DNA of 60,471 bases, counting the filler. It is 7 parts of 7 records of this genome, joined end to end, with 100 filler letters (N's around TTAATTAATTAA, not from the genome) between each part and the next. Parts side by side here need not be neighbours in the genome. Positions count along the whole stretch, not along the records: positions 6,237 to 23,976 come from SRR31147125_8698; 6 more parts are not named here. One strand, written 5' to 3'. Below, piece after piece: positions 72-42,475 of this stretch. The notes under the pieces are model-generated. The model did not search any database. It had not been told where the DNA came from and was given only the letters and a program-made list of their open reading frames with translations. Position 1 is the first letter of the stretch. Each line of letters opens with the position of its first letter. The position numbers and the translations under genes are program-made.

Positions 72-2356
72 TTAATTTATTGGTTTGTTAGTCATTTCAA
101 GTTCCAATATTCCGCCACTCACAATCTCGTTATGAGTTATCCAATAGCGTTTCAAAGGTTTCCCGTTCAATTTCATTGATTTGATGTAGATATTCTCTTT
201 GGAATTGTTTTGAGCAATAATTGAGAATGTATCTCCAGAATAATACTTTGGATCCAACTGAATGTCGACCCGATTAAAAACTGGACTTGTTATTTCGTAC
301 TTATTATTGCCAGGGCATACCGGATGAATACCCATAGCAGCGAGAACATAAAAAGCCGACATCTGTCCAACATCTTCATTTCCGCACAAACCAAAAGCAT
401 CAATTCCGTATGCCTTTTCACATATTTCACGAGTCCATTTCTGAGTTTCAGATGGTAGACCAAGCTCATTAAATAAGAATGGGACATGATGAACAGGCTC
501 ATTAGCATGATTATAATAATCGTTCCATAAAAGTCACGGGGTGTATTGGAAAAGAAATTTAACAGCTCCTTCCTAAATTCTGCTTTTCCACCCATTAATT
601 CCATAAGTCCCTTAATATCATGTGGAACAAACCAAGCTTGCTGATATGGATTACTTTCAGTACACCCTTGTCCATGAACGGTTTTACCCTGCCAAGACAT
701 CCAGTTTCCATTTGCATCTTTAGCACGAAACCAATTTACATCTGCATTCCATATCTGCTTATAATTCTTACTTCTTCGATAATATTCGCAGGCAAGTTTT
801 TCCTTATTAAGTGACTCTGCAAAACGTCCCAAGCACCAATCAGTATATGCATACTCCAGTGTATGTGAAATACTGTTTGCAGTGTATCCCAACGGTTCGT
901 TACCAAATTGATCAACACTGTTTTTCGCAAATTGAAATGCTTTCTCTATATCGTAATTCCGAATACCTTTTTCATAAGCATCAACAACCACTGAAACTGC
1001 CGGATTTCCTAGCATACAACCTGAAAAAGCATTGAGCAGTTCCCAACGTGGAAAATAATTATGACCACTCGATTCAGCTAATTGGATCAATGAGTTAATT
1101 TCATCATTTACCAAGGAAGGATTAATAATAGTTTGAAGGGGAAACTGAGAACGAAAAACATCCCACCCACTAAAAATTGTTCGATATGTATAATCATTGG
1201 CTAAATGAGTCTGTTTATCAGCTCCAATATATTCCCCATTTACATCGGAACATGCACGAGGATCGATCATGGAATGATACAAGGCCGTATAGAATTTGAT
1301 TTTGTCTGCTTCAGTCCCCCCATAAACTTTTACCTTTTCAATAGCATTTCGCCACAAATTTCTCGTATCAATTACCACCTGGTCAAAGTCCCATCCAGGA
1401 ATATCATGTTCCAGGTTTTCTTTAGCTCCGTTTACACTCACAAATGAGATTCCACTTTTAACTATAATTTCCTGACCTTCATACGTGTTATAATTTGCAT
1501 AAAAACCAAGATGTTTGCCTTGCATTTCTTTCTGAAGAGGATACAGTTGAGCATTTGAAACAAGTTCCTGATATTTTGAACTCTGAACCTCTTCATTTTT
1601 ACGAACCCAATCGTCTGGTATTTCTGCACTCCAAACACCAAAGTTTTCCAGTGGTTCACTAAATTGACAGTAGAAATAGACCGTATAATCAACCTTTCCG
1701 TCTCCATTCCCCCAACCACCTCCTTCAGGAGGACACTTCATCCATCCCTGAATGGTATAATCATCAACAAGTTCAACAAATTGCTCGGTAGAAGTTCCAC
1801 CACGCCTTCGAGCCAAATCAATCTGAATATGGGATTCCTTATTTTCAGGAAAAGTAAACCTTAAGATACCTGCCCTTGGTTCAGCTGTTACTTCAACCCG
1901 TATATTATAATCAGTTAGATTAACCGCATAATACCCAGCTTCAATTTCTTCTCCATCGTGATTAAAACGTGAGCGATATCCATTTTCAGGATCATCATCA
2001 TCACCTTTATTAGTATGAACTTTACCTGTAGTCGGCATCACTAGAAAATTTCCAAGGTCACCGTACCACCCAACTCCACTCATTGATGTAAAACAGAAAC
2101 CTTCAATGGTTTTATGGTTGTACCCATATCCGCTTTCATCTCCACGTGTTCTGGTGACCGGACTTGGCTGAACCAAGCCAAAAGGAGTAGCAGCTCCTGG
2201 AAAAGTTTTACCAAATCCATGTATGTCGTCAGTTTGCTCAGTATATTTTACCGCACCTATTACTGGATGGATATAATCCACATTCTCATTATTCTGAGGA
2301 TTAGAACAAGCAAATATTAATAGAGTAATGACACTGAATAGAGATATTAGCTTCAT
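72..2356 (-). CDS. GH92 alpha-mannosidase lipoprotein, split by a 1-nt frameshift at ~529-532
   Basis: Lipobox IFAC; GKTFPGAATPFGLVQPSP, FSGWDVFRS, ESNPYQQ; adding one T gives LWNDYYNHANEPVHHVPFLF, which joins ORF 72..389 (CGNEDVGQMSAFYV). Confidence 0.92.
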
Positions 2357-2383
2357 GATGCTTACATAAAATCTTTTATTGGT

Positions 2384-3487
2384 CTATTTCAGATATACAG
2401 TTTTCCCAGTTTTTGCAGACAGTCGAGCTGCATCCAAGATTTCAACAACCCTCACATTGTTTTCTAATGAATACAAGCCAAATGGCTCAACCTTAATTTT
2501 TCCATTAATTATATCATAGAAATAAGAAAACGGATCCTGATATACAGCTATATTGTCAGCAGTTATTGTCTCTTGTTTTTCAAACTGCATTCCTTGTGTC
2601 CGAATTCTCATTGCTTTATCATTATCTGCCTTGATATAGCCTATAGCACCATAAATTTCCATATCCTTACGATTGAAAGGCCAATTCCATGAAGCCTGAA
2701 TAATACACTGACAATCAGGGTAGGATATAATTATTGTTGCTTCATCATCAACATCAGGATAAACATCAGGTTTAAACTGGCGAGTAACTGAAGTAACAGA
2801 AATAGGTTTTTCTCCTTTGGTCAACTTTGTCATTAAATTAGCACCATAACACCCAAAGTCTACAATAGCACCACCACCATTCAATACAGAATCTGTCAGC
2901 CAGTCCAGAAAAAATTTATCACATCCAATCTCTTTGGGGCCACGGTGACCATCATGGATTACCACTTTACGAAGCTTACCAACAAAATTTCCGTCCTGCA
3001 CCATTTCCATTGATTTTGCTGTTGTTGGATACCACGATGTTTCATAATTGGTTAAAAGATGAATGTTATTTTCCTTTGCCAGCTTCTGCATTCTCAAGGC
3101 ATGATCCATGTTAACTGCCAACGGTTTTTCCACCATAACATCAATACCACGAGATGCACAAGCTTCCACTACTGCCAAATGATCATAAACCGAACCAAAA
3201 GCGACAACTGCATCAGGTTTTACTTTATCTAACATCTCATTCAAATCATCATAAACCAACTCTGGATCAAGCACATATTTACGAATAACTTTTGTTTTCA
3301 ATTCCAGTTTAGATTCGAAAATACCTACCACATTAAAATCACCTTTATCTGGCCGATCCAAGATAAATGCAAGATGTCCATGAGACATACCGGCCACTGC
3401 CAAACGTATTGGTTTTTGCGCAGAAGCATTGAAGAATGTAAATACAAAAAGATAAGTAATCAGAGTATAAAGACCATTTTTCTTCAT
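2384..3487 (-). CDS. Gfo/Idh/MocA family oxidoreductase with signal peptide
   Basis: IRLAVAG, VMVEKPLA and GGGAIVDFGCYG motifs; N-terminal signal ending ASA-Q. Confidence 0.9.
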   Translation of the reverse strand: MKKNGLYTLITYLFVFTFFNASAQKPIRLAVAGMSHGHLAFILDRPDKGDFNVVGIFESKLELKTKVIRKYVLDPELVYDDLNEMLDKVKPDAVVAFGSVYDHLAVVEACASRGIDVMVEKPLAVNMDHALRMQKLAKENNIHLLTNYETSWYPTTAKSMEMVQDGNFVGKLRKVVIHDGHRGPKEIGCDKFFLDWLTDSVLNGGGAIVDFGCYGANLMTKLTKGEKPISVTSVTRQFKPDVYPDVDDEATIIISYPDCQCIIQASWNWPFNRKDMEIYGAIGYIKADNDKAMRIRTQGMQFEKQETITADNIAVYQDPFSYFYDIINGKIKVEPFGLYSLENNVRVVEILDAARLSAKTGKTVYLK

Positions 3488-3522
3488 AACAAATTCATTG
3501 TTTTTCAATTCTTCAATTAGAG

Positions 3523-5784
3523 CTATTTCGTTACTAAATTCTCAAAATTGCTATTGGGTGTTGCTCCCATCACAAATTTGATTACACCACCTTTCATTAT
3601 ATCCTGATGAGTTATGGAGTTCTTTAAATATGGTTCTCCATTTAAATTAACCGACTGGATATATATATTCTCATCGCTGTTATTTTCTGCTTCAACCACA
3701 AATCGCTTCCCTCCTTCGAGCTGAATTTCGGCCTTATCAACTAAAGGACTGCCAAACACATATTCACAGGAAGCCGGAAAGACAGGATAGAATCCAAGCG
3801 ATGAAAAAACATACCATGCTGACATTTGCCCACAGTCCTCATTTCCAATTACCCCATTTGGATCATCATGGTAAAACTCTTTCATAATATACCTGACTTT
3901 TTCAGCTGTTTTCCATTGCTGACCAGTGTAACTATATAGATATGCAATATGGTGACTTGGCTCATTACCGTGTGCATACTGACCAATAAGCCCTGTCAGG
4001 TCAACCAAAACCTCGGATTCTTCTTGAGGTTTAAGCACAAAGAAACTGTCCAGCCTGGCATTGAAAGTATCTTCTCCTCCCAACAATTCAACCAAACCGG
4101 GAACGTCTTGTGGAACCAACCATAAGTATTGCCAAGCATTCCCTTCTGCATAATCTGTTGCCTGATTGTGTTTTGATTTTAAAGCGTCAAATGGCCTGTT
4201 CCAAGTTCCATCTTTTTTTATTCCATGAAAAAAACCAACTGCTTCTTCATAAAACAATTTGTAATTTTTTGCTCGTTTAGTAAAGTATTTATAGTCTTCA
4301 GTTTTTCCCATTTCTTTAGCCATCAAAGCAATACTCCCATCGGAAATTGACAACTCTAAAGCCTGAGCGACAGCTCGATGTACATTTTCATCATCTGAAG
4401 GGATTGGCTTAAACTCACGTAAATAATTAAGCCCTCTCAAATCAGAATTGGATGTTTTCACAACAGCTTCATACGCTTTTTCCACATCAAAATCTCTAAA
4501 CCCTTTTAAATAAGCCTCTGCTATCACCTGAATACTACTAATACCAACCATTGTTCCTGTTTCGTATCCATTTAGATGCCAGATAGGTAAATATCCTTGC
4601 TGATCATAAATCGCAAGCATCGAGTTAATGAAATCACCCATCCTATCAGCTTGAGTAATTGTAAATAAGGGGTGCTCTGCACGGTATGTATCCCACAATG
4701 AGAATATGGTATAATTACTAAAGCCTGCTGTTTTATAAATCTGATTATCAGTTCCTCGATAGTCTCCATTGCTATCATTGAATAATGAAGGATGCATAAA
4801 TGAATGATACATTGAGGTATAGAAAATCTTCTTATCTGATTCATTATTAGTCTCAACTGTTATTTTCTTCAGTTCACTATTCCATTTCTCACGGGCTAAT
4901 TTTACAATTTTATTAAACTCCCAATCCGGTATTTCTGCATTAATGTTTCCTAAAGCATTGGATTCACTAACTGGTGAAATACCAATCTTTAGTTCTACTT
5001 TCTCAGGAATATCATCAAAGCTAATCAAGCCCTTTATATTTTTACCACTTGCCTTTTGTCCCTCAATCGGCAAATCTCCTTCATATAAGCTTAAATCATT
5101 TAGTGGCACTGAACTTCGAATAGCAAAAACTTGCTGTTCTTTTGCCCATCCGGAAGAAAACCGTCTACCAAACAATGTATAGTTATCAATCTTTATTAAG
5201 GAAGTCTCTGTGGATTGATCATTAATTCCCTCTTTCAAATCAATAATAATATGTGCGTCTTCTTTTTTTGGAAAAAAATAACGATGGTACCCAACACGTT
5301 CTGATGCAGTTAATTCAACATGAACCCCGTTATCAAGGGTTACCGAATAATAGCCAGGTTTTACAACTTCATTTTCATGACTGAATGTTGAAAGATATCC
5401 TCCGTGTGGATATTGCTGCTTTCCTTTATCTAACCTTGGTTCTCCTGTATATGGCATAATTAAAATATCTGCCAAATCTCCAATTCCTGTTCCACTAAGG
5501 TGAAGTTGAGAAAACCCAATAATTAAACTATCAGAATAATGATAACCGGAGCACCAATCCCACCCTTTGTAGATATTGTTTGGACCAATTTGTACTGCTC
5601 CAAAAGGCACATTCGCACCAACAAAAACATGTCCGTGCCCACCAGATCCAATGAACGGATCAACGTAATCGACTGGTTGTTTTACAGATTGTTTGGGAAC
5701 TTGAGTACAACTCCCAAACAATAGTACTGACAAAACAACAAGTGTTATAATTCTATAATTTTTCAAAGAATGAGATTGATTCAT
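3523..5784 (-). CDS. GH92 alpha-1,2-mannosidase lipoprotein
   Basis: Lipobox FGSC; YVDPFIGSGGHGHVF, FSLWDTYRA, EGNAWQY, QYAHGNEPSHH, GNEDCGQMSAWY. Confidence 0.95.
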   Translation of the reverse strand: MNQSHSLKNYRIITLVVLSVLLFGSCTQVPKQSVKQPVDYVDPFIGSGGHGHVFVGANVPFGAVQIGPNNIYKGWDWCSGYHYSDSLIIGFSQLHLSGTGIGDLADILIMPYTGEPRLDKGKQQYPHGGYLSTFSHENEVVKPGYYSVTLDNGVHVELTASERVGYHRYFFPKKEDAHIIIDLKEGINDQSTETSLIKIDNYTLFGRRFSSGWAKEQQVFAIRSSVPLNDLSLYEGDLPIEGQKASGKNIKGLISFDDIPEKVELKIGISPVSESNALGNINAEIPDWEFNKIVKLAREKWNSELKKITVETNNESDKKIFYTSMYHSFMHPSLFNDSNGDYRGTDNQIYKTAGFSNYTIFSLWDTYRAEHPLFTITQADRMGDFINSMLAIYDQQGYLPIWHLNGYETGTMVGISSIQVIAEAYLKGFRDFDVEKAYEAVVKTSNSDLRGLNYLREFKPIPSDDENVHRAVAQALELSISDGSIALMAKEMGKTEDYKYFTKRAKNYKLFYEEAVGFFHGIKKDGTWNRPFDALKSKHNQATDYAEGNAWQYLWLVPQDVPGLVELLGGEDTFNARLDSFFVLKPQEESEVLVDLTGLIGQYAHGNEPSHHIAYLYSYTGQQWKTAEKVRYIMKEFYHDDPNGVIGNEDCGQMSAWYVFSSLGFYPVFPASCEYVFGSPLVDKAEIQLEGGKRFVVEAENNSDENIYIQSVNLNGEPYLKNSITHQDIMKGGVIKFVMGATPNSNFENLVTK

Positions 5785-9333: not shown

Positions 9334-10089
9334 ATGAGCCGGATCCTCGCCTTCTCAGACCTGAAACAGCTTTTGCTGTCATTAGCAATCTGGTCTTCCA
9401 CCATATTTCTGACACTGACGCTATTTTTGCTTATGTTGCTGGTAACAGCGGTGACCTTTCCTTTTGACAGAAAACGGAAGCTTCAGCACTCTTTATGCTT
9501 CTTCTGGTCGGATGCACTTATAAAAATTAACCCGTATTGGCGTGTTGTAGTTAATGGAGGTGAATATGTTGATCGCAAACGCACCTATGTCATGGTTGCT
9601 AACCATCAATCCCTTTTGGATATCGTCGTTTTGTTTCAGCTGAGAATGCAGTTCAAATGGATAGCGAAGGATTCACTCTTTCGTGTCCCTGTCCTCGGCT
9701 GGTGCTTATCACTTGCCAGACATGTTTGTCTAAAGCGTGGAAGCCTTTCAAGTATTCGTAGTGCTGATCAACAAGCTTCCGGTTGGATTGATACAGGTAT
9801 GTCGATGATGTATTTTCCAGAAGGAACTCGTAGCAATACCGGAAAACTCCAGAAGTTTCACAATGGTGCATTCAAGATGGCGCTTAAAAAGAAGGTGCAA
9901 ATTCTGCCTGTTGCTATTCAGGGAACAGCGGCAGCCATGCCGAAGAATAAATTATTCTTTAATTCAGGAGGTGTCATCAGTATCAGAGTTCTTCCTGCTC
10001 TTGAGCCGGAAGATTTCACTTTGAATGGTATGGAGTGTCTTAAAAACTCTGCCAGAGATAAAATTTTTCAGGCACTCTCTAAAGGCTGA
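9334..10089 (+). CDS. Lysophospholipid acyltransferase (PlsC-like)
   Basis: NHQSLLD and FPEGTRS motifs; N-terminal TM segment. Confidence 0.92.
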   Translation: MSRILAFSDLKQLLLSLAIWSSTIFLTLTLFLLMLLVTAVTFPFDRKRKLQHSLCFFWSDALIKINPYWRVVVNGGEYVDRKRTYVMVANHQSLLDIVVLFQLRMQFKWIAKDSLFRVPVLGWCLSLARHVCLKRGSLSSIRSADQQASGWIDTGMSMMYFPEGTRSNTGKLQKFHNGAFKMALKKKVQILPVAIQGTAAAMPKNKLFFNSGGVISIRVLPALEPEDFTLNGMECLKNSARDKIFQALSKG

Positions 10090-10224: not shown

Positions 10225-11625
10225 CTAGGTTGTCTCTTTTGATAATTTGCAATTTAAGAGTAAATTTTTGGGAAGTGCTTCTACACACTCTAAAACTTTC
10301 TGATACTCGGTCTTGAGGGCTTGCAAACTGATTTGAGAGTTTTCCAGTAATAATCCGATTCTAGCATCATGCTGGATTTCTGATTCATCATTGTTTAGGA
10401 AATATCCATTCAGGAGTGTTCTTACTTGCAAGTCACATTTGCTTTTAAATGAGTTTACCAGTTCATCACAATCTTTCTTGATACTTGTGATGCTCTGTGA
10501 CATGCCTTCATAATTTTTGCGAACGCTAAGGAATTCATGGTGGATAGCTTGAACATATTCATTCTTAAGTTGTGAGAGTAATTCGCAGACAGAGACGATT
10601 TTATCTAGTTTATATGCATTAGCTCCTGCAAAGGCATAACCTTCAGCAAGGTTGCCGACGCGAGCATTGTTCAGCGCAATTGAGATACAGTAGCCGGCAT
10701 TCTCGATATTACAAGTCTCAAGACACTTCCATGGACACTTAGCATACTTGAATGATTTGTCTTTTAGTCCTTTTATAAAGTCATTATTGATAGCTCTTCC
10801 TGGCATTCCGACAGGGCTCTGAATAATGACAAGATCTTCTTTGGATGAGTTGATATACTCCTCTTTAAATTTAATATCAGCATCACATTCATGAGTAGCA
10901 ACAAATCTTGTGCCTAACTGTACGCCACCAGCACCGAGTTTTATAAACTTATATATATCTTCGCCATTGTAGATACCTCCAGCAGCTATAACAGGTATCT
11001 TTCTCTGGAATTTTTCTTCATAAACCTCCAGAGTCCTGATTACTCTAGGAACAATTAATTCTAAACTATAATTGGGGTCATCTATCTCTTCTACTTTGAA
11101 CCCTAGGTGTCCTCCAGCTTTTGGACCTTCTACAACTACTGCATCAGGGATGTCGTTAAACCGTTTTTGCCAACTCTTGAAGATGAGCTTGGCTGCTCTC
11201 TCTGTCGAGACAATTGGCACAACCATGATGTTTGCTTCTCGTAGCTCGCTGACTGGTATGCCTTTAATTGGTAGGCCAGCTCCGAGGAAGATCAGATCTG
11301 GTTTTTCTTCTAGAATGACAGCCATCAGGGGTTGAAAATCATTAGCTGCGACCATGAGGTTTACACCTAAAAGTCCTGAAGAGATTTTTCTGGCTTGTCT
11401 AATTTCATTTCGAAGTGCCCGTACATTTGCTTCAATGCTATTTTGAAAGTAATCTGGCTCTATCATACCTATGGCATTTGCAGCAATTACTCCGATTCCG
11501 CCTTCTGTCGCAACTGACGAGGCAAGCCCTGACATAGAGATACCGACCCCCATACCTCCTTGAACAATTGGTAATGCGGCTGTTTTGTTTCCTATTATTA
11601 ATTCTGGCATACTGAAAAGATTCAT
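10225..11625 (-). CDS. Nitronate monooxygenase/FabK-superfamily FMN protein, FabX/UfaA-like subgroup, with C-terminal extension
   Basis: PIVQGGMGVGIS, VEGPKAGGHLG, IAAGGI, GVQLGTRF, SPVGMPGRA; Cys motif CPWKCLETC...YCI. Confidence 0.88.
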   Translation of the reverse strand: MNLFSMPELIIGNKTAALPIVQGGMGVGISMSGLASSVATEGGIGVIAANAIGMIEPDYFQNSIEANVRALRNEIRQARKISSGLLGVNLMVAANDFQPLMAVILEEKPDLIFLGAGLPIKGIPVSELREANIMVVPIVSTERAAKLIFKSWQKRFNDIPDAVVVEGPKAGGHLGFKVEEIDDPNYSLELIVPRVIRTLEVYEEKFQRKIPVIAAGGIYNGEDIYKFIKLGAGGVQLGTRFVATHECDADIKFKEEYINSSKEDLVIIQSPVGMPGRAINNDFIKGLKDKSFKYAKCPWKCLETCNIENAGYCISIALNNARVGNLAEGYAFAGANAYKLDKIVSVCELLSQLKNEYVQAIHHEFLSVRKNYEGMSQSITSIKKDCDELVNSFKSKCDLQVRTLLNGYFLNNDESEIQHDARIGLLLENSQISLQALKTEYQKVLECVEALPKNLLLNCKLSKETT

Positions 11626-11643
11626 CTAAATTACCTACCTTAT

Positions 11644-11674
11644 AAAAAATGGTATTCCCTAGAAGGAATACCAT
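11644..11674 (-). terminator. Intrinsic terminator in the leader (riboswitch expression platform)
   Basis: Minus strand ATGGTATTCC-TTCTAG-GGAATACCAT-TTTTT, just upstream of the RBS. Confidence 0.8.
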
Positions 11675-11749
11675 GTATAATACCAAAGCCCGTGTCAAGA
11701 CATCTTGAACGGTTTATTTCCTTCCTACGCGAGGAATACAAGCTCGTAA

Positions 11750-11900
11750 AACATATCGTCTTCTGGCTTCCGGAAAGCCTCTTGCTCGGCACTTCCCATC
11801 AAAATTATGACAGTGTACCAAGCGCCTTAACTCCGGTTACAGCGGCGCGTCCGCGATGGATTTTCACCATCTTCCGTTTTATGTTATACGTTAAATTACC
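11750..11900 (-). promoter_or_regulatory. Cobalamin riboswitch
   Basis: Minus strand AAAACGGAA GATGG-TGAAAAT-CCATC GCGG-ACGCG-CCGC TGTAA CCGGA...CACTG TCA-TAATTT-TGA TGGGAAG...TCCGG AAGCCAGAAGAC (B12 box). Confidence 0.9.
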
Positions 11901-12187
11901 AAAGAACGTTACTAAACACAGCAATAATGCTATATCTCTTATACTCAAATATCTATCAATTACAAGGACTATTATATTTTACTCATATACAATTGACTTT
12001 TTAACTTGTGAAGCACTATTATTAATCCCAATGATTTCATATATACCATTTTCATTACGATAGTCCACATTATTTATCAAGTGTTGCAAAGTAGAGATAT
12101 ACTGGCTTAAGCCTGAGTCTATGAACTAGCTGATTCAAATTAATCTGTTAGTTTAGTCACTTGATATGAGTGGCTTGACAATAATAA

Positions 12188-14066: not shown

Positions 14067-15596
14067 CTATGGAAGTAATGACAACCTCAATGCAGACATC
14101 TGATTTGTCTGTTCAATTCCGAAGAGACTTGTCTCCTGTAGTATTCGCTGGGTAGTCATTTCAGTAACACTCTGAGCAATATCTGTATCTGTTATTGCAC
14201 TATTGGCTGCAGTGATGTTCTCCATAGCTATTTCGAGGTTTTTAGCGGTTGCATCCAGAGCATTACTCTGGTAAGCCCCGATATCAGCCCTGTAGCCAGA
14301 TACATCCTCAATAGCCTGTCCTATTACCTGTTGAGCAATATCAGGATCGACTGCTAATGAAGCTTTTCCGCCACCAAAGAGATCCTGCAATGAATAGCTT
14401 TCACCATCTACAGTAATTCTTCCGAGATTTGACAGATTTGCATTTGGCAATGAGACATGATCTCTGTCAGAACCACCTGCGCCAGAACCTAGCTGAAGCT
14501 GTTCTGTTCCTTCTGGCTGTGATACTGTTGCTCTACGGGCGGTAGATGCATCGACAAGAGTATCTTCGCCATATCCACCTTGACTTACTCCGGTTGTGGA
14601 GCTATCAGAATCAGCCGGATTAAACTGTAGAGTCCCGCCGATATTCTGTGTGTCTACTGTCACACTCAAGCCATCGCCGGTGAATTCCTGACCGTCGACA
14701 CTTATAGTCAGATCCTGTCCTGCGTCACTTGCGCTACTGCCGGCAGTTGCAAAGCCATCTCCGGCAACCTGTTCAACAGTGACGCTCTGGCTGCTGCCAT
14801 AATCAGTAGAAGCAAGGCGTACTTCGGTATTGCCATCAATAGCAAAAGCCTCTACGCCTGTGTCCTCGGTTGAGGCATTAATCGATGCAACCATATCTTC
14901 AATACTTGTACCTGCAGCAAAAGCAAAGTTTTCAGAGCCATTGACACCGCTGACAGAAAAACTCTGATCTGCAGCTAGAGTTGTTGCTCCAGTTCCAAAA
15001 TTACTGGTAAGTGTGGCTTTTTCAGCTTGATCAGCAGTATCACCACTGAAACTCACGACAACATCATTCTGTCCTGTTGCCTGAGTATGCACATCAGCAT
15101 CACTCTGATTCAGGTTGATAATATTTGCAGGATCAGCTGCATCCATAGCAATGGAACCGGCAGAGAAAGATTTCGTGCCATTGAGTAGATTTTCACTGCC
15201 ATAATTGGTAGTGGTTGCAAGATGATTGACTGTACTGAGCAGGTTGTTCATCTGAGATTGATAAGCGCCTGTCTGTCCGCTGCCATTGATACCGGTATTA
15301 CCAGCACCGACTGCAAGAGTTTTCATCTGATTGAGAGCAGAGGAGATGCCACCAAGACCACCCTCAGCAATTGAGAACATGTTGTAGGCTTCCTGAGTAT
15401 TCTGGTAAGCTCTCGACATACCGCTCAACTGGCTGTACATCTGTGATGATATCACCAGATTTGCTGGGTTATCCTTTGCTGTGTTGAGTTTGACTCCAGT
15501 AGAGATGTTGCGCATTGCCTTACTGGCATTTTTCACTGACTTATTCAGGTTATTGATATACCCGCCAGCTGCGCCTGAGTTTACGTTACCTACCAT
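14067..15596 (-). CDS. Flagellin, divergent
   Basis: N-terminal ISTGVKLNTAKDNPANLVIS...SIAEGGL; C-terminal RADIGAYQSN...SAITDTDIA; RBS GGAGG before ATG 15596. Confidence 0.88.
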   Translation of the reverse strand: MVGNVNSGAAGGYINNLNKSVKNASKAMRNISTGVKLNTAKDNPANLVISSQMYSQLSGMSRAYQNTQEAYNMFSIAEGGLGGISSALNQMKTLAVGAGNTGINGSGQTGAYQSQMNNLLSTVNHLATTTNYGSENLLNGTKSFSAGSIAMDAADPANIINLNQSDADVHTQATGQNDVVVSFSGDTADQAEKATLTSNFGTGATTLAADQSFSVSGVNGSENFAFAAGTSIEDMVASINASTEDTGVEAFAIDGNTEVRLASTDYGSSQSVTVEQVAGDGFATAGSSASDAGQDLTISVDGQEFTGDGLSVTVDTQNIGGTLQFNPADSDSSTTGVSQGGYGEDTLVDASTARRATVSQPEGTEQLQLGSGAGGSDRDHVSLPNANLSNLGRITVDGESYSLQDLFGGGKASLAVDPDIAQQVIGQAIEDVSGYRADIGAYQSNALDATAKNLEIAMENITAANSAITDTDIAQSVTEMTTQRILQETSLFGIEQTNQMSALRLSLLP

Positions 15597-16148
15597 TGTG
15601 CTACCCTCCATAGTATGTCCAGAGCGCATCCATAGGCTCTGATCGACAAACAGAATAATATATTGTACTAACTGTTATTAATTATTGTAGTTATGCGAAA
15701 ATAATCCTGCATAAAAGTTATAATCCTTCAACTACATTTTAGCACAACTTTTTACACTTGTCAAATAAATCTTTAACTATTTGGATGATTTAAAAATTGA
15801 ATGGCAGCAATTTTATCCTGATATATTCTGCAATTCATTTAGTTATATATCATTTTATTAAGAATGTAAGCTGAAGAGTTGCTGTGTTTCTATGCTAATA
15901 ATAATTTCGGGTAAAATTGTATGAACTCAAGCTGATGTCAACTGCTGGGTAGGGAGTGGATTTCTTTGGGAAAAGATGGTTGTTTTTAAAGTTAATTGGC
16001 TTGACGGGAAAAATAATACGAGTTATCATTGATAGTATAGGAAAGGTATATTCAGTAGCCGTAATCTGCTGATATATTATGTCAGCCAGATTATACTGAC
16101 AGATTTTCGTATAGTAGCTGCTCGTCTCTCTTGACAGGAGGAAGACAG

Positions 16149-34590: not shown

Positions 34591-37500
34591 TCATTTAATG
34601 ACACCAAATTTGCCTACTTTTTCTTCTCCAGTAATATCATCTTTTACATGATAAAAGTACATGCCAGCGGCAATTTCCAAACCCTCCCAGGAAAGCATAT
34701 CCCAATGAAGGACACCTGTATTCGAATCACCCATACCGTCGAATGATGTCAATCCATCTACTGGTCCGTGCAATTCCCGAACAAGCATACCGCTTACTGT
34801 AAATATCTTTATTGTACATTGTGCCGGAATATTTGTAAATAATAATCTTCGGCTCTGGTTAAGGTACTTGTTGACCACTGACGGTTCCATCATGTTTGTG
34901 GCAACATAAGGGTTCGGCACAACACGGATATCTTCCATCTTGCTTTTGGCTTTTTCTGTATCGATCAACTTTTGGGCTGAAACCTTAAAGGTCAGAGAAT
35001 CTGTTCTATACCACGGTTTCAGGTGGCGAATTGCATAAACATCGTTTGGCTGTGGCAATTCACTTTCATTCTGGCATTGGTTAAAATCAATGATAAATAA
35101 AATCCCATCCCATAATTTTCTCTCATTATAGGGGCCGACCAAAATACGATCTTCCAATATGTCAAACTGCCCATTGCTGTTCATATCCTGCACCAACATA
35201 TCCATTACACGAGGAGTTCCGGTAGAATCCGCAAAATCCAGGCATTCAATTCTAAAATTAAAGTCCTCGTCAACCAGCAATTCATCCTTGTTTAGTCTAT
35301 TACCTTCTTCATCCGTCAGATAAGCAGCGTATCGCTGTGCAATCTGTGTTTGAGTCAGAGGTTGATCGGAAAAAACAATATTATAATCCCAGCCATAACA
35401 CTGCATTGGTGTGGCGTCGATATAGTGGATATTCATCGGCGATTCTCCGGGCATCCATCCGGTATTTTCTATATCAATCTCTGATACAGCAGCATCCATT
35501 TTGATGCCTAATTGCAGTCCGTCAAAAACGTCCGTCCACATGAGTTCTGAGGTAGCGATATGATAAAAACCGTTATCCTCCCTTTCAATAACTGAATTCA
35601 TATTTCTTTGTGAACACAGTTCTTTTTCACCTTCCAATACATCTTCAAACACTAATTTCCCATCTTCTGTCTCATCATATATCGACATACCGTTGGCGGT
35701 ATATTTATATCCATAACCTGCGTGATATTTATAAGCGGAATCCAGCTGGTTATAGGAAAATTTAATTTTATAGGTATGGCCTTCTTTGAGAGAATTTTCA
35801 TCCGCAATTTTGGGCACAACTTGTCCGTCACCTATGGTTCCGTTGTCATCAATCTCAAAATCAACTTCAACAGTCTCACCTGCTGCATTCGTTCCTGGCG
35901 TTACGATTGCCACATTTGGCCCAATGAATTCTACATCTTCATATTCATTCTTTCGAACCACAGCATTGTTTTCAGATGGCCCAATACCGGCATTTTCACC
36001 CTGAGATATAAGACTACTACCTTTAAGCTTGTCAGGTTCAATACCATAATCGTAAGCGACTAGAGCATAATAATAGGTCCGGCCATTCTGTACGGTTTCA
36101 TCTTTAAAAGAATAGGCTATACCTGTGTTTTCACCCATGTAATAAGCAGTTCCATTTAAAAGACCCCAGGTTGTAAATCCCTTGTACTCATCTTTTTTAT
36201 CACATTGAAAGATAGGTTTTAAAAAGGCTTTTGTTCCAAATCCATCTGTCACTATCCGCGGATCAAGCATATCCGGATCTGTAGAACGATACACTTTATA
36301 GCCTTCAAAATCGTTTTCTCCGTTAAGAAAAGATTCCCTGGTAAGTTTGTCTGAGCGATCGTCCCACATCAATTGAACAAAGCCATCTCCGGCCACTGCT
36401 TTAAGCGTCGGCATTTCCGGTGGCTGGGCAAAGCGATAATCCTTTTCATAGATAAGCTGTACCACATTTTTCAATGTAAAAAGTGCCGGTGCTGTATGTT
36501 CATCTGCAATTAAACCGGCGAGATCATCGTAGGAATGCAGCTCAGAAATTGAGATAAACTCAGTAAGACCCTGATAAAGAGGAAAAGTGGCGGTGGAAAA
36601 CAACTGGAACAAGTTATTAATATTTGACGCGCCCGATTCCAGTTCATCTTTCGTCATATTTTTGTACATTGATTCATCATGTCTGAACCAGTTCCTAAAA
36701 GGCGCAACCGCAATAGGACATTCGTAAAACAACAACGTTGTTAAACCCAACATGTCGGTTTCAGACACATCAGTCCAGCCAAAATTTGGTTCGGCATATC
36801 CCTCTCCCAGGTCCGGTTTATGATTACATTCTGTACCATCCGCATCCGGCCCGGTATAATTAAGTTCACCAGGAGCGACGCCGTCAAGACCGACATCATC
36901 GCCGGCATACTCTTCTGCCTGATAAATTCCGTCTTCGTTAAGATCAAGACCATCATTCCAATCCTGATCTTCATCGCCTGACCAGTGATCTTTTAAATCT
37001 TCTTCCTTTTTACCATAGAATGATAGAAACTTGTCCAAATCCACAATGCCATGCATCTTGTCGACGAATTCACCTGCATCGTTGTCTCGTTTTTCATCAA
37101 TCAGACCATCATCATCATTATCCATATTGTCATTAAAGATACCAGGACTTTCAAGATAGGCATATCCGGCGGTACCGGTCCTATATCCACTATCACCAAC
37201 TCCATCGGTATCCCAACTGTATGACAAGTTTAATATTTTGTCATAACTGCCATCTTCGCCACTATTTTCGCCGCCAATATTATTATCCAGCCAGTAACCA
37301 AAAGCCATGTGCGGCAAATCATAATCTGATACATTGGCGATTGTATATTCCCAAAAAATACAGTCCTGCGCCATCGGATTATTCCACTGAAAGCCTCTCT
37401 GTTTCACTCTTATTCCCAGACCGCCCCACGGTTTTCCCTTTTGCACGGTCACATTGGGATCAATATCACCAATTCGAACATTATTGCGTGGATAATATTT

Positions 37501-38154
37501 AACTCTATCATCATCGCTCAGGTATTCGAGATCCTGAGCATCATTGGCAACAACATATGTCTCCAAATCTGCTTTAATTTGACCACGACCAAAGCGACCA
37601 TCCCACTCGTTAACCCAATGCGTTTGGCGTCCTGTGTATAACCATCCTTGGGGTGGCCAGGACAGTGGATCATTGCTCATAGCCGGTGTTTCGCTAAGAG
37701 TATTCATATAACCGGCAGCAGGATGAAGACCCCACTCGATTTGACCTGTAGGATCGCAGTCCATTTGTTCACGATAATTGGTTTGACAATAAAAAAGCGT
37801 GTCAATTTGACCCTGGCTCGACAGCTGTTCAATAAGAACAGGATCGGTAACCGGAATTGAGTCCTGGGTTATGTAGACTGCTGCACTCACTAAAAGGCCC
37901 AATCCGTCGTGCATATTATTTCCGCCTACACCTTTTGGCCACCATGCGCCTTCAGGCCGCGGATAATCACCTAATTCTGTGTTATTTTTAAAAGTCAGTT
38001 GAACGCGGTTGCCAGTCATCACACCTTCGCGTTCAATATATGGATCTCCAGCACCATCCTCTGGGCCGTTATAAATTCTCCCTTGGGCATAAAGATCCGC
38101 ATTGTGTGCAAATAAAAATCCAAAACTAAGGATAAATAAAAGTATTCTCCTCAT
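34591..38154 (-). CDS. Large secreted protein with Asp-rich Ca-binding-like repeats and a T9SS/FlgD-like C-terminal domain
   Basis: Signal peptide from M15 of the ORF; DNDDDGLIDE, DLNEDG, DFEGYKVYRS; ends IRVVPNPY...IKIFTVSG...WD...AAGMYFYHV...GKFGVIK. Confidence 0.8.
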   Translation of the reverse strand: MRRILLFILSFGFLFAHNADLYAQGRIYNGPEDGAGDPYIEREGVMTGNRVQLTFKNNTELGDYPRPEGAWWPKGVGGNNMHDGLGLLVSAAVYITQDSIPVTDPVLIEQLSSQGQIDTLFYCQTNYREQMDCDPTGQIEWGLHPAAGYMNTLSETPAMSNDPLSWPPQGWLYTGRQTHWVNEWDGRFGRGQIKADLETYVVANDAQDLEYLSDDDRVKYYPRNNVRIGDIDPNVTVQKGKPWGGLGIRVKQRGFQWNNPMAQDCIFWEYTIANVSDYDLPHMAFGYWLDNNIGGENSGEDGSYDKILNLSYSWDTDGVGDSGYRTGTAGYAYLESPGIFNDNMDNDDDGLIDEKRDNDAGEFVDKMHGIVDLDKFLSFYGKKEEDLKDHWSGDEDQDWNDGLDLNEDGIYQAEEYAGDDVGLDGVAPGELNYTGPDADGTECNHKPDLGEGYAEPNFGWTDVSETDMLGLTTLLFYECPIAVAPFRNWFRHDESMYKNMTKDELESGASNINNLFQLFSTATFPLYQGLTEFISISELHSYDDLAGLIADEHTAPALFTLKNVVQLIYEKDYRFAQPPEMPTLKAVAGDGFVQLMWDDRSDKLTRESFLNGENDFEGYKVYRSTDPDMLDPRIVTDGFGTKAFLKPIFQCDKKDEYKGFTTWGLLNGTAYYMGENTGIAYSFKDETVQNGRTYYYALVAYDYGIEPDKLKGSSLISQGENAGIGPSENNAVVRKNEYEDVEFIGPNVAIVTPGTNAAGETVEVDFEIDDNGTIGDGQVVPKIADENSLKEGHTYKIKFSYNQLDSAYKYHAGYGYKYTANGMSIYDETEDGKLVFEDVLEGEKELCSQRNMNSVIEREDNGFYHIATSELMWTDVFDGLQLGIKMDAAVSEIDIENTGWMPGESPMNIHYIDATPMQCYGWDYNIVFSDQPLTQTQIAQRYAAYLTDEEGNRLNKDELLVDEDFNFRIECLDFADSTGTPRVMDMLVQDMNSNGQFDILEDRILVGPYNERKLWDGILFIIDFNQCQNESELPQPNDVYAIRHLKPWYRTDSLTFKVSAQKLIDTEKAKSKMEDIRVVPNPYVATNMMEPSVVNKYLNQSRRLLFTNIPAQCTIKIFTVSGMLVRELHGPVDGLTSFDGMGDSNTGVLHWDMLSWEGLEIAAGMYFYHVKDDITGEEKVGKFGVIK

Positions 38155-38219
38155 AGTCGATGATCCTTTCGAATTTCTTCCAATCGTTAGATTCATACCT
38201 TTTATTCAACGCAACGTCA

Positions 38220-40925
38220 TTAAAACGATACGCCGATGCCAAATTTGACCAACCGTGGTGCTGACCAGTTGGAGGGGCTGTAAATACTTTCTTCATAAGT
38301 ACTATAATCACTCCAAAAACCTAACCTGTCACTTGGTCTGATAATCGCTTGATTGGTCCGTCCTGTATGTGAATTAACGGCATTCTCGTTTAAGCGATCA
38401 AAAAGATTATAAATACGCAATGTCACACGAATATCAGCGCCTAATACTGTAGCAATGTCGTAATGTGCTTTTAAATCAAAGTTGTAATGAAAAGGTTTGC
38501 TAGCTCCATTTGGATAGAGATTGATGCGGTTAAGCGGATTCTGGTCGATCGGACTCCAGGAATAAGCCGACCCTGAACCCATCCATCCGAGGACAGTCAA
38601 ACCCCATTTGTCCTGGTTATATCCTGCAGTGAGATTCAAAGTATGACGTTGGTCCCAGCTCATCGGAATCAAGGTTGGAATAGGATCCTGGCTGCTACCG
38701 GCGCGACTAAAAGTAAAAATGGGATTATCAGCATTACCGCGTGTGTATTGTAAGGTATAGTTTACTTCAGCAAAAAAGTTTTCAACATGCGCATTATATT
38801 TAAGTTCAAGTCCTCGTGCATTTCCATAATCTTTATTTCCGTACAGGCCATAGCGAACCGTGTTATAGGTTGTCACAATATTGACAGTCGATAAATTATA
38901 AATATCTCTGTACCAAAGTGCTACCTCCAAATCCATAAAATCGTTAAGAGCCTGCCACAAGCCGATCTCGTAACTAACTGTCATCTCAGGCTTGACATTA
39001 GGATTACCCAGGGTGCTGGAATAATTTGCTGGAGAAATGACATAAGAGCTGTTTTGATACATGGTGCTATGAGGTGGATATTGGTAAAAATGTCCATAAC
39101 TGAAACGCAGCAATGCTGCCTCACCAAGTTTATAGGACAAACCCAAACGCGGGGCTAAATGTACTTTTGCCTCTGCTTTCGGATAGGTGCTAATCCATTC
39201 CTGCATATCTTCTTTTTGCAGCAAATTATTAGGATTTCGATAGTTGGAAGGATAAGTAGAATTTGGATCAAAATACTCACCCCGCACACCCAACTCTATG
39301 ACCATATTGTCGTATTCCATCTTGTCGGAAAGCCAGGCGGCTAATTGCAAAGGATTCTTTTGATAACTATCGGTGTAAACTGTTGAATCCGACATCATTT
39401 CCGGTGCGTAAAGAAAATCAGATGCAGGTGTATTGCGATAAAGATTTAAGATGCTGCTACTTCTATAATCATAATCAAACCATTCACCCTGAAGTCCGGC
39501 TTCGATACTGTGATTATTATTGGCCTGCCAGGTTACATCTAAACGACCGAGCATTTTTTTACTAACCGTTTCGGAATGTCCTTTATCCTGCCCGCCTGTT
39601 ACAAAACCAGTATATGAACTATTAGCCGAATAAGAGTCATGAATGTAGCGGCTATCCAGCGGATCCTCATACAAGTAGTTTCCATACGTATCCTTGGAAT
39701 AGGAAAATTTTGCCTCGTAAAAAAATTTCTTACCCAAAATATGATTCAACTGATAGGTCAGCATCTGGCTATTATTATGACCACGAGTACGCCCATCTGG
39801 TTTATATTTTCGAGAATGTTTGTACCATTGTTGTTCACTCTGATTGCGCAAATACATCAGTGACATTTTTATGTTCGGTAACTTGTATGTCAGCTTACCG
39901 TTGAGATTTATTGATTCTACCCAGTTCATGGGCACGTAAGAGCTATCTCCTGTATGCTCACCATAAAGATATTCACCGGTTTCACCATCAAACGCTAAAC
40001 TATCCTGATAGGCGCTATAGTCCGGTTGGTCAGTTACGTTAAATCGTCTGATACCATTCAGATAGTTGTCATTATCCTGAACTCTGGCACTGGCAAAAAA
40101 AGTGAGTTTATCACCAATGACAGGACCATGTAGCATCACTTTGTAATCTTCATTACGGTCAATTTGTGATGATTTTAAACCGATAAAAGTATCATCATGG
40201 GAGGTAAGATAATTGCCTAAATACCCCTCAAATTTTCCATGAAAAGTGTCACCACCTTCTTTGGTAATGGCATTGACAATACCGCTCATGGCCTGTCCAT
40301 ACTTGGCACTAAATGTACCGGTAATGACTTCGACTTCCTGAACAGCATCCGGATCAATCTCAATCATTTTGCCTCTGTTCAAACCATTATTGACAGACAT
40401 GCCATCAATCAAATAGCTTGTCTCATTGCTTCGGCCACCTCGGAAATGACCCTGAACAACTCCCGGCTGCATGGCGACAACCCCTCCAGTGCTCTCAACC
40501 GGCAGTACATTCATCTGATCTGATGATACATTTCGAATGGAACCTGTCTGGTCCTTCTTTACAGTTACCCTATCCGCTGTCACCACAATGTCTTCACCAA
40601 TTTCCATGGTTGTTTCCTGCAGTGTGGTTGACAAAGGAGAGGTTCGATTCACTGAAACCTGAACATCTGTGATTCGCTTATTCGCATAACCAATATACAT
40701 AAATCTAACTGTATAGGTCCCGGGAGGAACATTAATAATAAAATATTTACCGTCCATATCAGACGATGCTCCCAAATAGGTTCCTTCGATAACAACATTT
40801 ACACCGAGGAGAGGATCTCCTGTTTTGGCATCTTTGATTGTTCCTGAAATTTTCCCAGTTGTTTGTGCGAATAAACTTACTGGCAAATACAAAAGAAGGA
40901 GAATTCCAAAGACGAGGTTTTTCAT
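38220..40925 (-). CDS. TonB-dependent receptor (CarboxypepD_reg-like N-terminus, plug, barrel)
   Basis: GKISGTIKD...NVPPGTY; HFRGGRSNE..YLIDG; ITGTFSAKYG; PRLGLSY; NLFD; ends GIGVSF. Confidence 0.93.
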   Translation of the reverse strand: MKNLVFGILLLLYLPVSLFAQTTGKISGTIKDAKTGDPLLGVNVVIEGTYLGASSDMDGKYFIINVPPGTYTVRFMYIGYANKRITDVQVSVNRTSPLSTTLQETTMEIGEDIVVTADRVTVKKDQTGSIRNVSSDQMNVLPVESTGGVVAMQPGVVQGHFRGGRSNETSYLIDGMSVNNGLNRGKMIEIDPDAVQEVEVITGTFSAKYGQAMSGIVNAITKEGGDTFHGKFEGYLGNYLTSHDDTFIGLKSSQIDRNEDYKVMLHGPVIGDKLTFFASARVQDNDNYLNGIRRFNVTDQPDYSAYQDSLAFDGETGEYLYGEHTGDSSYVPMNWVESINLNGKLTYKLPNIKMSLMYLRNQSEQQWYKHSRKYKPDGRTRGHNNSQMLTYQLNHILGKKFFYEAKFSYSKDTYGNYLYEDPLDSRYIHDSYSANSSYTGFVTGGQDKGHSETVSKKMLGRLDVTWQANNNHSIEAGLQGEWFDYDYRSSSILNLYRNTPASDFLYAPEMMSDSTVYTDSYQKNPLQLAAWLSDKMEYDNMVIELGVRGEYFDPNSTYPSNYRNPNNLLQKEDMQEWISTYPKAEAKVHLAPRLGLSYKLGEAALLRFSYGHFYQYPPHSTMYQNSSYVISPANYSSTLGNPNVKPEMTVSYEIGLWQALNDFMDLEVALWYRDIYNLSTVNIVTTYNTVRYGLYGNKDYGNARGLELKYNAHVENFFAEVNYTLQYTRGNADNPIFTFSRAGSSQDPIPTLIPMSWDQRHTLNLTAGYNQDKWGLTVLGWMGSGSAYSWSPIDQNPLNRINLYPNGASKPFHYNFDLKAHYDIATVLGADIRVTLRIYNLFDRLNENAVNSHTGRTNQAIIRPSDRLGFWSDYSTYEESIYSPSNWSAPRLVKFGIGVSF

Positions 40926-41034
40926 AAGCTAATCCTTTACTTAAATTTTTGCTCGAATTTTATTCATTTATGTACTTGTATAGGTGCTTAATGGATTACG
41001 AAAAATTATCAAAATAGACACAAGACTCTAAATA

Positions 41035-41050
41035 AATGAGATGTCTCATT
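41035..41050. promoter_or_regulatory. Palindromic putative operator upstream of the TBDR operon
   Basis: AATGAGA-TG-TCTCATT, ~110 nt upstream of the ATG. Confidence 0.45.
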
Positions 41051-41310
41051 CACTTTTCACATATTGTCTGTTACTATAATAGCCTTCAATTATGCGAATA
41101 TCGATTTTAACGGCTTTTTTAAATATTTGATATAGAAATGATTCAAAAGTGGACGATCCTCGAAAAAACAGACCCATTATTAAGAGTTACACAGCTATTT
41201 GGATTTTCAATATTTTTCAGAGGTCATATAATGTAAAGACGTCGAATTTATTTCATCCTTGGCACAGGATGTTTAATCGATTTAGCATTGATACCTAAAA
41301 ACATGAAATA

Positions 41311-41410
41311 NNNNNNNNNNNNNNNNNNNNNNNNNNNNNNNNNNNNNNNNNNNNTTAATTAATTAANNNNNNNNNNNNNNNNNNNNNNNNNNNNNNNNNN
41401 NNNNNNNNNN
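41311..41410. other. Artificial contig spacer
   Basis: N44-TTAATTAATTAA-N44. Confidence 0.99.
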
Positions 41411-42475
41411 GAATTTTTCATATGCAGATTCGATCATTGGTGCAAGCTCGTTATCAAAAGGCAGAAAATTGATCCTTAAAAAATCCGAATCATAGGGATG
41501 TGAGATGATATCTTTTTGTTCTGCTAGCTCATAAAACAGCTGCTCCTTAGCTTGAGCGGAAAGAAGTGCCATTGATTGTCTGGCAACATTTTCAGATACA
41601 AGATAGGATTCTGCAATATCGGCAGCCTTTATTGCCAATTCATATTGTTCTTGTTTGAACATACGCTGCGCAAAACTTTTCATTGCTGTTTGAATATGCA
41701 ATTTATCCATATTCCCATTAAGCACCTCAAAAGCTTTATCGTGTTCTTGCAAGTGAATGTAAATATCGCTCAATAGCACTATTCCTTCTGGTGACTTTGT
41801 TTTTTCCAGCGCATGAATGGTTTTGGGATATAGTGCGGACAAAGGATCATAACGAAAAATGTTCTGCCTGACATATCGTAGGCCTTTTACATCCGTTTCA
41901 AGAATGTGTTGGATCTCCTCAACGGCATGATCCCAATTCCTGTAGCGTAAGGCAACTGTGAAATTGTAATTTATTAACAGTTTGGGATCATTTGTGATCG
42001 ATCTGAGCATATCTGTGATAATATGAAATTCGTTACCCATGCGATATTCGATCGCGTCCTGATAAACCGTGACCGCATAAGAATTCCTGATATTGGATTT
42101 TTGTCCCGTAAAGACTTCTGTCCATATTTTATTTGCCTTGGCTTTATTATCTATCGCATAATAAAGCATGCCCAATTCAAGTTTCAGGTATCTGTCGTGT
42201 GATCGACCTTCCAATCTTTTTTCTATGACAGGCTGAAGCTCCGCAAATTTTCTTTGTAAGACCAAAATATTCCGGTAGCGATTGTAGTAATTGAAATTAT
42301 TCGGATTTGAAACATAAAGATCTACGAACAAAGATTCAGCTTTGGCGTATTCCCCAGCTTTTTCAAAAACAATGGCCTGTTTGTATTCCTTCTGTTGCTG
42401 ATTATCTTTACCGAATAAGGGCAATATAATCGTCAACAAAAGTATAAATACAATATTTACGGCTTTCCTCTTCAC
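41411..42475 (-). CDS. Secreted TPR-repeat protein, 3' truncated
   Basis: Signal peptide; helical repeats such as GEYAKAESLF..LY..NP and LELGMLYY..KANKIW. Confidence 0.7.

Follow-up and report, generated by a model that had tools for sequence, protein, structure and literature searches.

The window analysed here, a stretch of DNA of 60,471 nucleotides (nt), contains on its minus strand a gene for a FabX-family flavin mononucleotide (FMN)/[4Fe-4S] enzyme and, directly in front of it, a cobalamin (vitamin B12) riboswitch. The initial annotation had placed a full cobalamin aptamer at 11750-11900 and had proposed a scan against Rfam as a check. That scan confirmed the aptamer within slightly wider limits (Table 1), with a match to RF00174 of 68.2 bits (E 9.8e-15) that spans model positions 1-189, exceeds the gathering score of 31.5 bits, and is the sole Rfam match within the whole window. 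As the open-reading frame (ORF) of the FabX-like gene ends before a terminator-like hairpin and a convergent plsC-like gene, the unit is monocistronic.

The closest relatives of the protein are encoded in two Planctomycetota chromosome assemblies, at locus L001 of genome G001 (77% identity) and locus L002 of genome G002 (69%), and in both of these genomes a match to RF00174 lies directly upstream of the gene (64 and 71.6 bits, respectively). The three leaders align from promoter to start codon at a mean column identity of 85%, and no ORF within ~10 kb is common to the window and either relative besides the FabX-like gene itself. Since the surroundings differ while leader and gene are retained by these three related, uncultured bacteria, the leader appears to travel with the gene. 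The three FabX aptamers are 82-86% identical to one another, compared to 75% between the orthologous metE aptamers in G001 and in G002; the FabX aptamers share 56-62% identity with the metE aptamers of the same genomes and 46-57% with the other three, and there are hints here that the leader was copied from metE. Taken as sequence comparisons, the conservation of aptamer, terminator, and gene argues for a maintained, working unit.

The promoter-like element ~25 nt 5′ of the aptamer, TTGTAA and TATAAG with a 16-nt spacer, was not flagged by the consensus promoter scan; its hexamers and spacing are kept in the three leaders (TTGCAT-16-TATAAG in G001 and TTGCAA-16-TATAAG in G002), and we take it as the putative promoter of the leader-gene unit. 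The same scan returned zero promoter-like sites for the minus-strand stretch from aptamer to ATG, and the promoter of the gene's own downstream of the aptamer, which the initial annotation had allowed for, thus has no candidate in the scan. The intrinsic terminator that the annotation had put at 11644-11674 was recovered by the terminator scan with 11 pairs followed by a T-run, ending ~20 nt before the start codon, and the region contains 4 terminator-like sites, compared to 1.6 ± 1.1 in shuffles. Across the three leaders, 33 of 33 cells of the terminator stem are paired, including 3 of the 11 pairs that have changed on both sides in G002, whereas at most 55% of cells were paired in a control in which the 3′ partners were slid by one to three columns; a shuffle control is weak with three sequences, 45 of 500 shuffles reaching the observed value.

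Between aptamer and terminator, the segment GTATTCCT-CGCGT-AGGAAGGAA is present as the annotation had described it. The first platform hairpin formed within this segment is present in the minimum free energy fold of the window leader, and its loop, CGCGU, is the exact complement of the L5 loop of the aptamer, ACGCG. Both loops are invariant in the three leaders and the contact shows no covariation, neither side varying; CGCG also occurs in the equivalent platform loop of the metE leaders from G001 and G002. A kissing contact between the L5 loop and a platform loop is known from published cobalamin riboswitch structures, and we take the L5/CGCGU pair to be the L5-L13 kissing loop by which the platform hairpin is stabilised when ligand binds. 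The purine-rich strand that runs on from this hairpin, AGGAAGGAA, is able to pair with TTCCTTCT (11668-11661) in the 5′ arm of the terminator. In this antiterminator register, pairing holds at 22 of 24 cells across the three leaders, and in G002 a perfect GGAAGAA/UUCUUCC pairing, shifted by one register, can be read from the alignment. The competition between hairpin and antiterminator put forward in the annotation is therefore plausible by pairing, while covariation lends it nothing.

In the mechanism that we propose, transcription of the unit would start at the conserved promoter just 5′ of the aptamer. With cobamide bound, L5 would pair with the loop of the first platform hairpin, and this hairpin, once stabilised, would sequester the purine strand AGGAA(GGAA), leaving the 11-bp hairpin and its U-run to form and to stop RNA polymerase ~20 nt before the start codon. 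In the ligand-free transcript, the purine strand would instead be free to pair with the terminator's pyrimidine 5′ arm (UUCCUUCU), allowing read-through into the gene. The OFF state is well supported; the ON state, which would be kinetic, is plausible. From the leader sequences, it is very likely that a functional cobalamin riboswitch governs this one gene through premature transcription termination, acting as a B12 OFF switch with a predicted response to ligand and a predicted antiterminator.

Table 1 Features of the riboswitch-FabX unit and its 3′ flank in the window
Feature	Coordinates	Strand	Basis or remark
Promoter-like element, TTGTAA (11965-11960), 16-nt spacer, TATAAG (11943-11938)	11938..11965	-	Read from sequence
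Aptamer RF00174, full length, with peripheral P6 extension	11735..11915	-	Rfam, 68.2 bits
L5 loop ACGCG of the aptamer	11846..11850	-	Placed by Rfam alignment; invariant in 3/3 leaders
Segment GTATTCCT (11739-11732), then CGCGT (11731-11727), then AGGAAGGAA (11726-11718)		-	Read from sequence
First platform hairpin, P13-like: TTCCT / loop CGCGT (11731-11727) / AGGAA	11722..11736	-	5 pairs, paired in 3/3 leaders
Purine-rich strand AGGAAGGAA, candidate antiterminator strand	11718..11726	-	3′ strand of first hairpin running on
Middle hairpin CCGTTCAAG-ATGT-CTTGACACGG	11690..11712	-	8 never-varying pairs, variable loop; conserved
Intrinsic terminator: 11-bp stem 11674-11649, loop TCTA, T-run 11648-11644	11644..11674	-	Terminator scan
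Ribosome-binding-site-like AAGGTAGG, 8 nt before ATG	11634..11641	-	Read from sequence; AAGGT conserved in three leaders
Gene for 466-aa FabX-family FMN/[4Fe-4S] enzyme	10225..11625	-	ATG at 11625; ORF, Pfam, structure matches
Terminator-like hairpin 3′ of stop codon	10141..10159	-	Terminator scan
plsC-like gene, convergent with FabX-like gene	9334..10089	+	Follows terminator-like hairpin

The 466-amino-acid (aa) protein matches the NMO family of Pfam at 184 bits and divides into an NMO/FabX core (residues 1-353) and a helical-hairpin extension (residues 354-466). The motifs cited in the initial annotation were located in the core, QGGMGVGIS at residues 22-30, EGPKAGGH (annotated as EGPxAGGH) at 166-173, and the cysteine motif as C297-x3-C301-x3-C305-x7-C313, the four cysteines being invariant in 36 of 36 aligned homologues. 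Among solved structures, the top sequence match is FabX of Helicobacter pylori (242 bits, E 6e-71, residues 6-353), while FabK structures score ~92 bits, and an identity as FabK was rejected with the TIGR03151 equivalog model, against which the protein scores 134.2 bits for a cut-off of 453.1. In an AlphaFold model built from 36 homologues (mean predicted local distance difference test, pLDDT, 85.5), the top five Foldseek matches are all FabX (target template-modelling score 0.84-0.86, root mean square deviation 2.5-3.0 Å, 36-38% identity), the match spans the [4Fe-4S] cysteine subdomain, and FabK ranks behind. Residue roles given in the H. pylori FabX structure paper (PMC8626469) were mapped through a sequence alignment. 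N89, E166, and Q236 correspond to the FMN ligands N99, E175, and Q240 of FabX and H173 to the catalytic H182, all of them invariant in the 36 homologues, as are the equivalents of the cluster cysteines C300, C304, C308, and C320, namely C297, C301, C305, and C313; T239 corresponds to T243 and is T in 28 of the homologues and S in 8. The likeness to FabX noted in the annotation is thereby upheld, H. pylori FabX being the best match in sequence and in fold, with cofactor and catalytic residues kept, and by sequence and modelled structure the protein is assigned to the FabX family, not to FabK.

The best-known member of this family, H. pylori FabX (HP0773; PDB 7E1Q and others), is an acyl-acyl carrier protein (ACP) dehydrogenase/isomerase with FMN and a [4Fe-4S] cluster that is likewise encoded by a stand-alone gene and shares its FMN ligands, catalytic His, and four cluster cysteines with the window protein. 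Unlike the latter, it lacks the 113-residue C-terminal helical hairpin, has a last cysteine spacing of x11 rather than x7, carries T130 and R160, which are replaced in the window protein, and is not under B12 control; it also needs O2, whereas the host of the window protein is probably a strict anaerobe. FabK (enoyl-ACP reductase II, TIGR03151) shares the TIM-barrel superfamily of NMO and the catalytic His with the window protein, which has its [4Fe-4S] subdomain at the place where FabK binds NAD(P)H (PMC8626469). The C-terminal extension (window 10225-10563) has no counterpart in H. pylori FabX and no Pfam match, and was modelled as two long helices, 346-409 and 416-457, with a pLDDT of ~60-80. 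Of the 36 aligned homologues, 35, spread over several phyla, have this long form of 432-502 aa, and the 371-aa orthologue of G002 is without the extension. A FabX-type lipid function is probable, with a predicted substrate and electron acceptor, and the enzyme would most likely dehydrogenate and isomerise a medium-chain acyl-ACP, starting unsaturated fatty-acid synthesis in an anaerobe.

The gene convergent with the FabX-like gene encodes a PlsC-type 1-acylglycerol-3-phosphate acyltransferase, a lipid-related neighbour that is not conserved in G001 or G002. In G001 only, and in neither the window nor G002, a divergent flavodoxin gene (L102:15380-15925, plus strand) lies upstream of the riboswitch-FabX unit, and its product is conceivable as an electron partner of the [4Fe-4S]/FMN enzyme. 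The rest of the window (290-5784, 14067-15629, and 34591-45805) carries two GH92 glycosidase genes, a 520-aa flagellin, Sel1/TPR repeat proteins, a TonB-dependent receptor, and two very large ORFs of 1201 and 1109 aa without a Pfam match.

The survey upstream of FabX-like homologues that the initial annotation had called for was carried out with Rfam at gathering thresholds. A riboswitch was found upstream in 2 of the 20 genome loci scanned out of 22 (L001 and L002), in none of 12 loci made up of the remaining 2 genome loci and 10 loci from relatives of G001, in none of 20 out of 23 metagenome loci, and in none of 60 out of 80 diverse loci, so that, the window apart, the pairing was recovered at 2 of 112 scanned loci and was absent from the other 110. 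The metagenome scan omitted the least similar loci (L092, L095, and L096), and four of the metagenome loci scanned have protein products identical to those of genome loci, while L084 is a duplicate of L082; the scan of diverse loci omitted L111, L114, L116, and L117, on contigs already scanned, as well as L172-L187, and L112, L118, and L130 have less than 150 nt of upstream sequence. A regular-expression prefilter for riboswitches, which recovers 10 of 12 Rfam-confirmed controls, returned zero over all 80 diverse loci. In a maximum-likelihood tree of 42 distinct proteins, with the FabK-like protein of G001 and G002 as outgroup and with six identical rows and partial or masked loci excluded, the three riboswitch-linked proteins form one clade (Shimodaira-Hasegawa-like approximate likelihood ratio test 99) nested in the long-form group with Aminicenantes and Acidobacteria sequences. 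Because the three proteins form one clade, the pairing goes back, on this tree, to a single evolutionary event within a small clade. FabX-like matches at E <= 1e-40 were obtained in 12 of 61 relatives of G001, most of them in other subclades; the 61 include one unpublished genome, G055, used in tallies only.

Further loci bring a cobalamin riboswitch close to a gene of this family in another arrangement. In G028 (L072), the riboswitch lies downstream of the FabX-like gene, not upstream; here (L101, G028:C1:1-12000), the gene has an internal N-masked stretch, and a 47-bit cobalamin riboswitch comes after it on the same strand and drives an ABC operon of the Opp/Nik type, which encodes two permeases, one SBP_bac_5 protein, and a pair of ATPases; the adjacency may be chance. 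In G006 and its sister G004, a riboswitch 5.7 kb from an NMO-like gene was set aside as chance, given four intervening genes; this riboswitch drives a 753-aa ORF, taken as metE by size only. In other phyla, no fab genes were found beside the FabX-like homologues, whose neighbours are an uninformative set comprising an SBP_bac_5 gene, genes for unknown proteins, and one for a FAD_binding_4 protein. At L143, in a Bacillota metagenome-assembled genome, a molybdenum cofactor (Moco) riboswitch (77.5 bits) lies upstream of the FabX-like gene on the opposite strand and, directly downstream on the gene's own strand, an FMN riboswitch (112.6 bits).

The cobalamin regulon in which the FabX-like gene is found could be read from G001 and G002, each of which has five cobalamin riboswitch matches, one of those in G002 falling, at 30.0 bits, just below the cut-off. 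Their targets are the same in both genomes, comprising an exported-looking CbiK-like protein, MetE, a ThiC-family radical-S-adenosylmethionine (SAM) protein, a Gate-domain membrane protein, and the FabX-like enzyme. The riboswitch-controlled CbiK-like protein (L033, G001:C1:15516-15735; L039, G002:C1:1198927-1199144) has a hydrophobic, signal-peptide-like N-terminus, which points to an exported protein that binds cobalt or a corrinoid, and away from chelation in the cytoplasm. The ThiC-family gene (L035, G001:C1:2349945-2350164; L038, G002:C1:2474782-2474977), with ~553 bits to PF01964, stands under a cobalamin and not a thiamine pyrophosphate (TPP) riboswitch, which we take to be the pattern of anaerobic benzimidazole (BzaF-type) lower-ligand enzymes. 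A short riboswitch variant without the peripheral extension (L036, G001:C1:2002312-2002442, minus strand, 32.6 bits; L040, G002:C1:2082236-2082360, minus strand, 30.0 bits) precedes the gene for the ~410-aa membrane protein, whose sole Pfam match is the Gate (nucleoside recognition) domain and which is a candidate transporter of a corrinoid or a precursor.

Both genomes also encode CbiC and CobS, and a MetH-like protein alongside the riboswitch-controlled MetE. Each has one FabX-like gene, one FabK-like NMO, an LpxC-FabZ fusion, and a second FabZ-like gene, and neither has a FabA equivalog, a PF00487 desaturase, a haem-copper oxidase (COX1), or a cytochrome bd. Acyl-CoA mutase (MM_CoA_mutase) and EutB were likewise found in neither genome, nor was the diol dehydratase large subunit, this last being a weak blank, as the family matched no control genome either. 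From this gene content, the hosts look like cobamide-producing strict anaerobes in which the B12-repressed enzyme would be the only recognisable double-bond-forming one.

We consider the best overall explanation, with a probability of roughly one in two, to be that of a B12 OFF switch on a FabX-type lipid gene that follows the logic of metE, in which the enzyme would be needed mainly when cobamide is scarce. As with metE-type targets, the OFF switch precedes a single biosynthetic enzyme gene, and the metE aptamers of the sister genomes are the closest to the FabX aptamer and have the same CGCG loop contact. MetE, however, has a known B12-dependent partner, MetH, which is present, whereas no partner was found for the FabX-like enzyme. 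Since metE-type logic requires a B12-dependent counterpart, a partner was sought among the B12-binding proteins of G001 and G002, where a search with PF02310 returned the MetH-like protein, one corrinoid protein (in G001 only), and B12-radical-SAM proteins. Two of the latter were tried as lipid partners and set aside, a 492-aa protein whose gene sits among sugar-nucleotide and methyltransferase genes, and an orphan 560-aa protein that occurs in 8 of the 61 relatives with no pattern tied to FabX. That a B12-dependent counterpart exists at all we regard as somewhat doubtful. The B12-repressed lipid pathway put forward in the initial annotation therefore stays the most likely reading, while the B12-dependent lipid modification for which, in the annotation, it possibly substitutes is unsupported in G001 and G002, which lack acyl-CoA mutase, diol dehydratase, and EutB.

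Several observations weigh against this explanation. The genome-content arguments come from G001 and G002 and not from the window's own genome, and no B12-dependent lipid enzyme was found among the B12-binding proteins of these two genomes, NrdJ and QueG not having been searched. H. pylori FabX needs O2, with no other acceptor known for it (PMC8626469), and the sister genomes are without an oxidase, so a different electron acceptor would be required. It is a paradox that the one gene recognisable as double-bond-forming should be repressed, unless this repression is partial or a second route exists. The residues that dock ACP, rated pivotal in the FabX structure paper (PMC8626469), are only partly kept. 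The basic helix of this surface is retained, and the equivalents run K152 to R143, I156 to L147, K159 to K150, R160 to S151, R164 to R155, and T130 to I120; R160 is thus S, the T130 position is I here and I, L, or V in 36 of 36 homologues, and the R164 position, R here, is R or K in just 20 of 36. In the leader, no compensatory changes in the antiterminator pairing were seen among the three sequences, thermodynamic folds favour the platform hairpin together with the terminator, and the terminator even with the first hairpin blocked, and the antiterminator pairing turns up only in the nascent-transcript fold of G001. Lastly, the pairing amounts to one event in one small clade, seen at 2 of 112 loci and in the window.

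Partial repression is what would be expected if B12 served here as a physiological signal rather than an isozyme marker, a reading that we hold to be unlikely, if the least unlikely of the alternatives. Through the switch, the unsaturation of the membrane would be adjusted to cobamide status, which might stand in for methionine/SAM supply, growth state, or community density, for instance; some unsaturated fatty acid would always be made, and no B12-dependent enzyme would do the same job. This agrees with the search of G001 and G002, in which no B12-dependent lipid enzyme was found, and with the position of the FabX-like gene as the only recognisable double-bond-forming one, which argues against full shut-off; the presence of CbiC, CobS, and a riboswitch-controlled ThiC-like gene indicates that the hosts probably make their own cobamide, in which case the switch would read an internal pool. 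Set against this, a pure signalling use has little precedent and no known mechanism ties B12 to a need for unsaturation, the known targets of cobalamin riboswitches (PMC2211319) being B12 synthesis, uptake, or B12-independent isozymes.

Less likely again is a role for the enzyme in cobamide metabolism rather than lipid synthesis within the riboswitch clade, where it would be repressed by its end product and would act as an FMN/[4Fe-4S] protein that reduces cob(III)alamin or cob(II)alamin, or in lower-ligand or corrin chemistry. Flavoproteins can reduce cobalamins, three of the four other riboswitch-controlled genes point to cobamide supply (CbiK-like, ThiC-family, and Gate-domain), the ACP-docking residues are conserved only in part, and in G028 the FabX-like gene adjoins a riboswitch-controlled Opp/Nik-type ABC operon. 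That adjacency may be fortuitous, however, and the enzyme matches FabX in its active site, in all four cluster cysteines, and in its fold; homologues of 50-60% identity are also widespread without a riboswitch (0 of the 110 other loci), and G001 and G002 offer no other candidate for unsaturated fatty-acid synthesis. It is highly improbable that the riboswitch is a leftover or passenger, with the gene under its own promoter and the leader no longer regulatory. Nothing speaks for this directly except that the flanks differ among the three genomes, which implies past rearrangement, and against it stand an intact aptamer, platform hairpins, terminator, and ribosome-binding site, conserved at 85% while the proteins are 69-77% identical, the compensatory changes in the terminator, and a stretch from aptamer to ATG that is free of promoter-like sites and whose terminator ends ~20 nt before the start codon.

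The preferred explanation, a metE-like OFF switch on a lipid gene, has a published parallel. According to Kazanov et al. 2007 (PMC2211319), a cobalamin riboswitch precedes ole1, a gene for a fatty-acid desaturase (COG1398), in metagenomes, and a B12-dependent/independent isozyme pair was proposed for it. The initial annotation had known of no described link of this kind, a statement that this earlier case, with the same isozyme logic, shows to be not quite accurate. The two cases have in common B12 control of an enzyme that introduces a double bond into fatty acids; the ole1 desaturase is, however, a membrane-bound, O2-dependent di-iron enzyme that is not homologous to the FabX-like protein. 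Among the 61 Planctomycetota relatives, 0 of 40 desaturase matches, compared by eye, were near a riboswitch. The pairing of a cobalamin riboswitch with a FabX-type (NMO, nitronate monooxygenase) gene was not found in the literature searched. The sequence comparisons confirm a known riboswitch class with a new, conserved, and lineage-restricted target.

The regulons of cobalamin riboswitches have been a dependable guide to new aspects of B12 biology, among them transporters, the synthesis of lower ligands, and B12-independent isozymes. Here, a conserved switch in front of a FabX-type gene ties cobamide status to membrane lipid unsaturation in anaerobes and, together with the desaturase case of 2007, suggests that a link between B12 and lipids is not an accident of one lineage. 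It can be conjectured, at rather long odds, that the recurrence of B12 control over Ole1-type and FabX-type enzymes marks an undiscovered cobamide-dependent route to unsaturated fatty acids or equivalent lipids, of which FabX and Ole1 would then be the B12-independent back-ups; the orphan 560-aa B12-radical-SAM protein shared by G001 and G002 is a candidate for the cobamide-dependent lipid enzyme. A B12-dependent counterpart, if there is one, would be a new lipid enzyme, and if there is none, a vitamin riboswitch would be in use as a physiological signal. The finding also points to the large long form that FabX takes in anaerobes, for which O2 would not serve as the electron acceptor.

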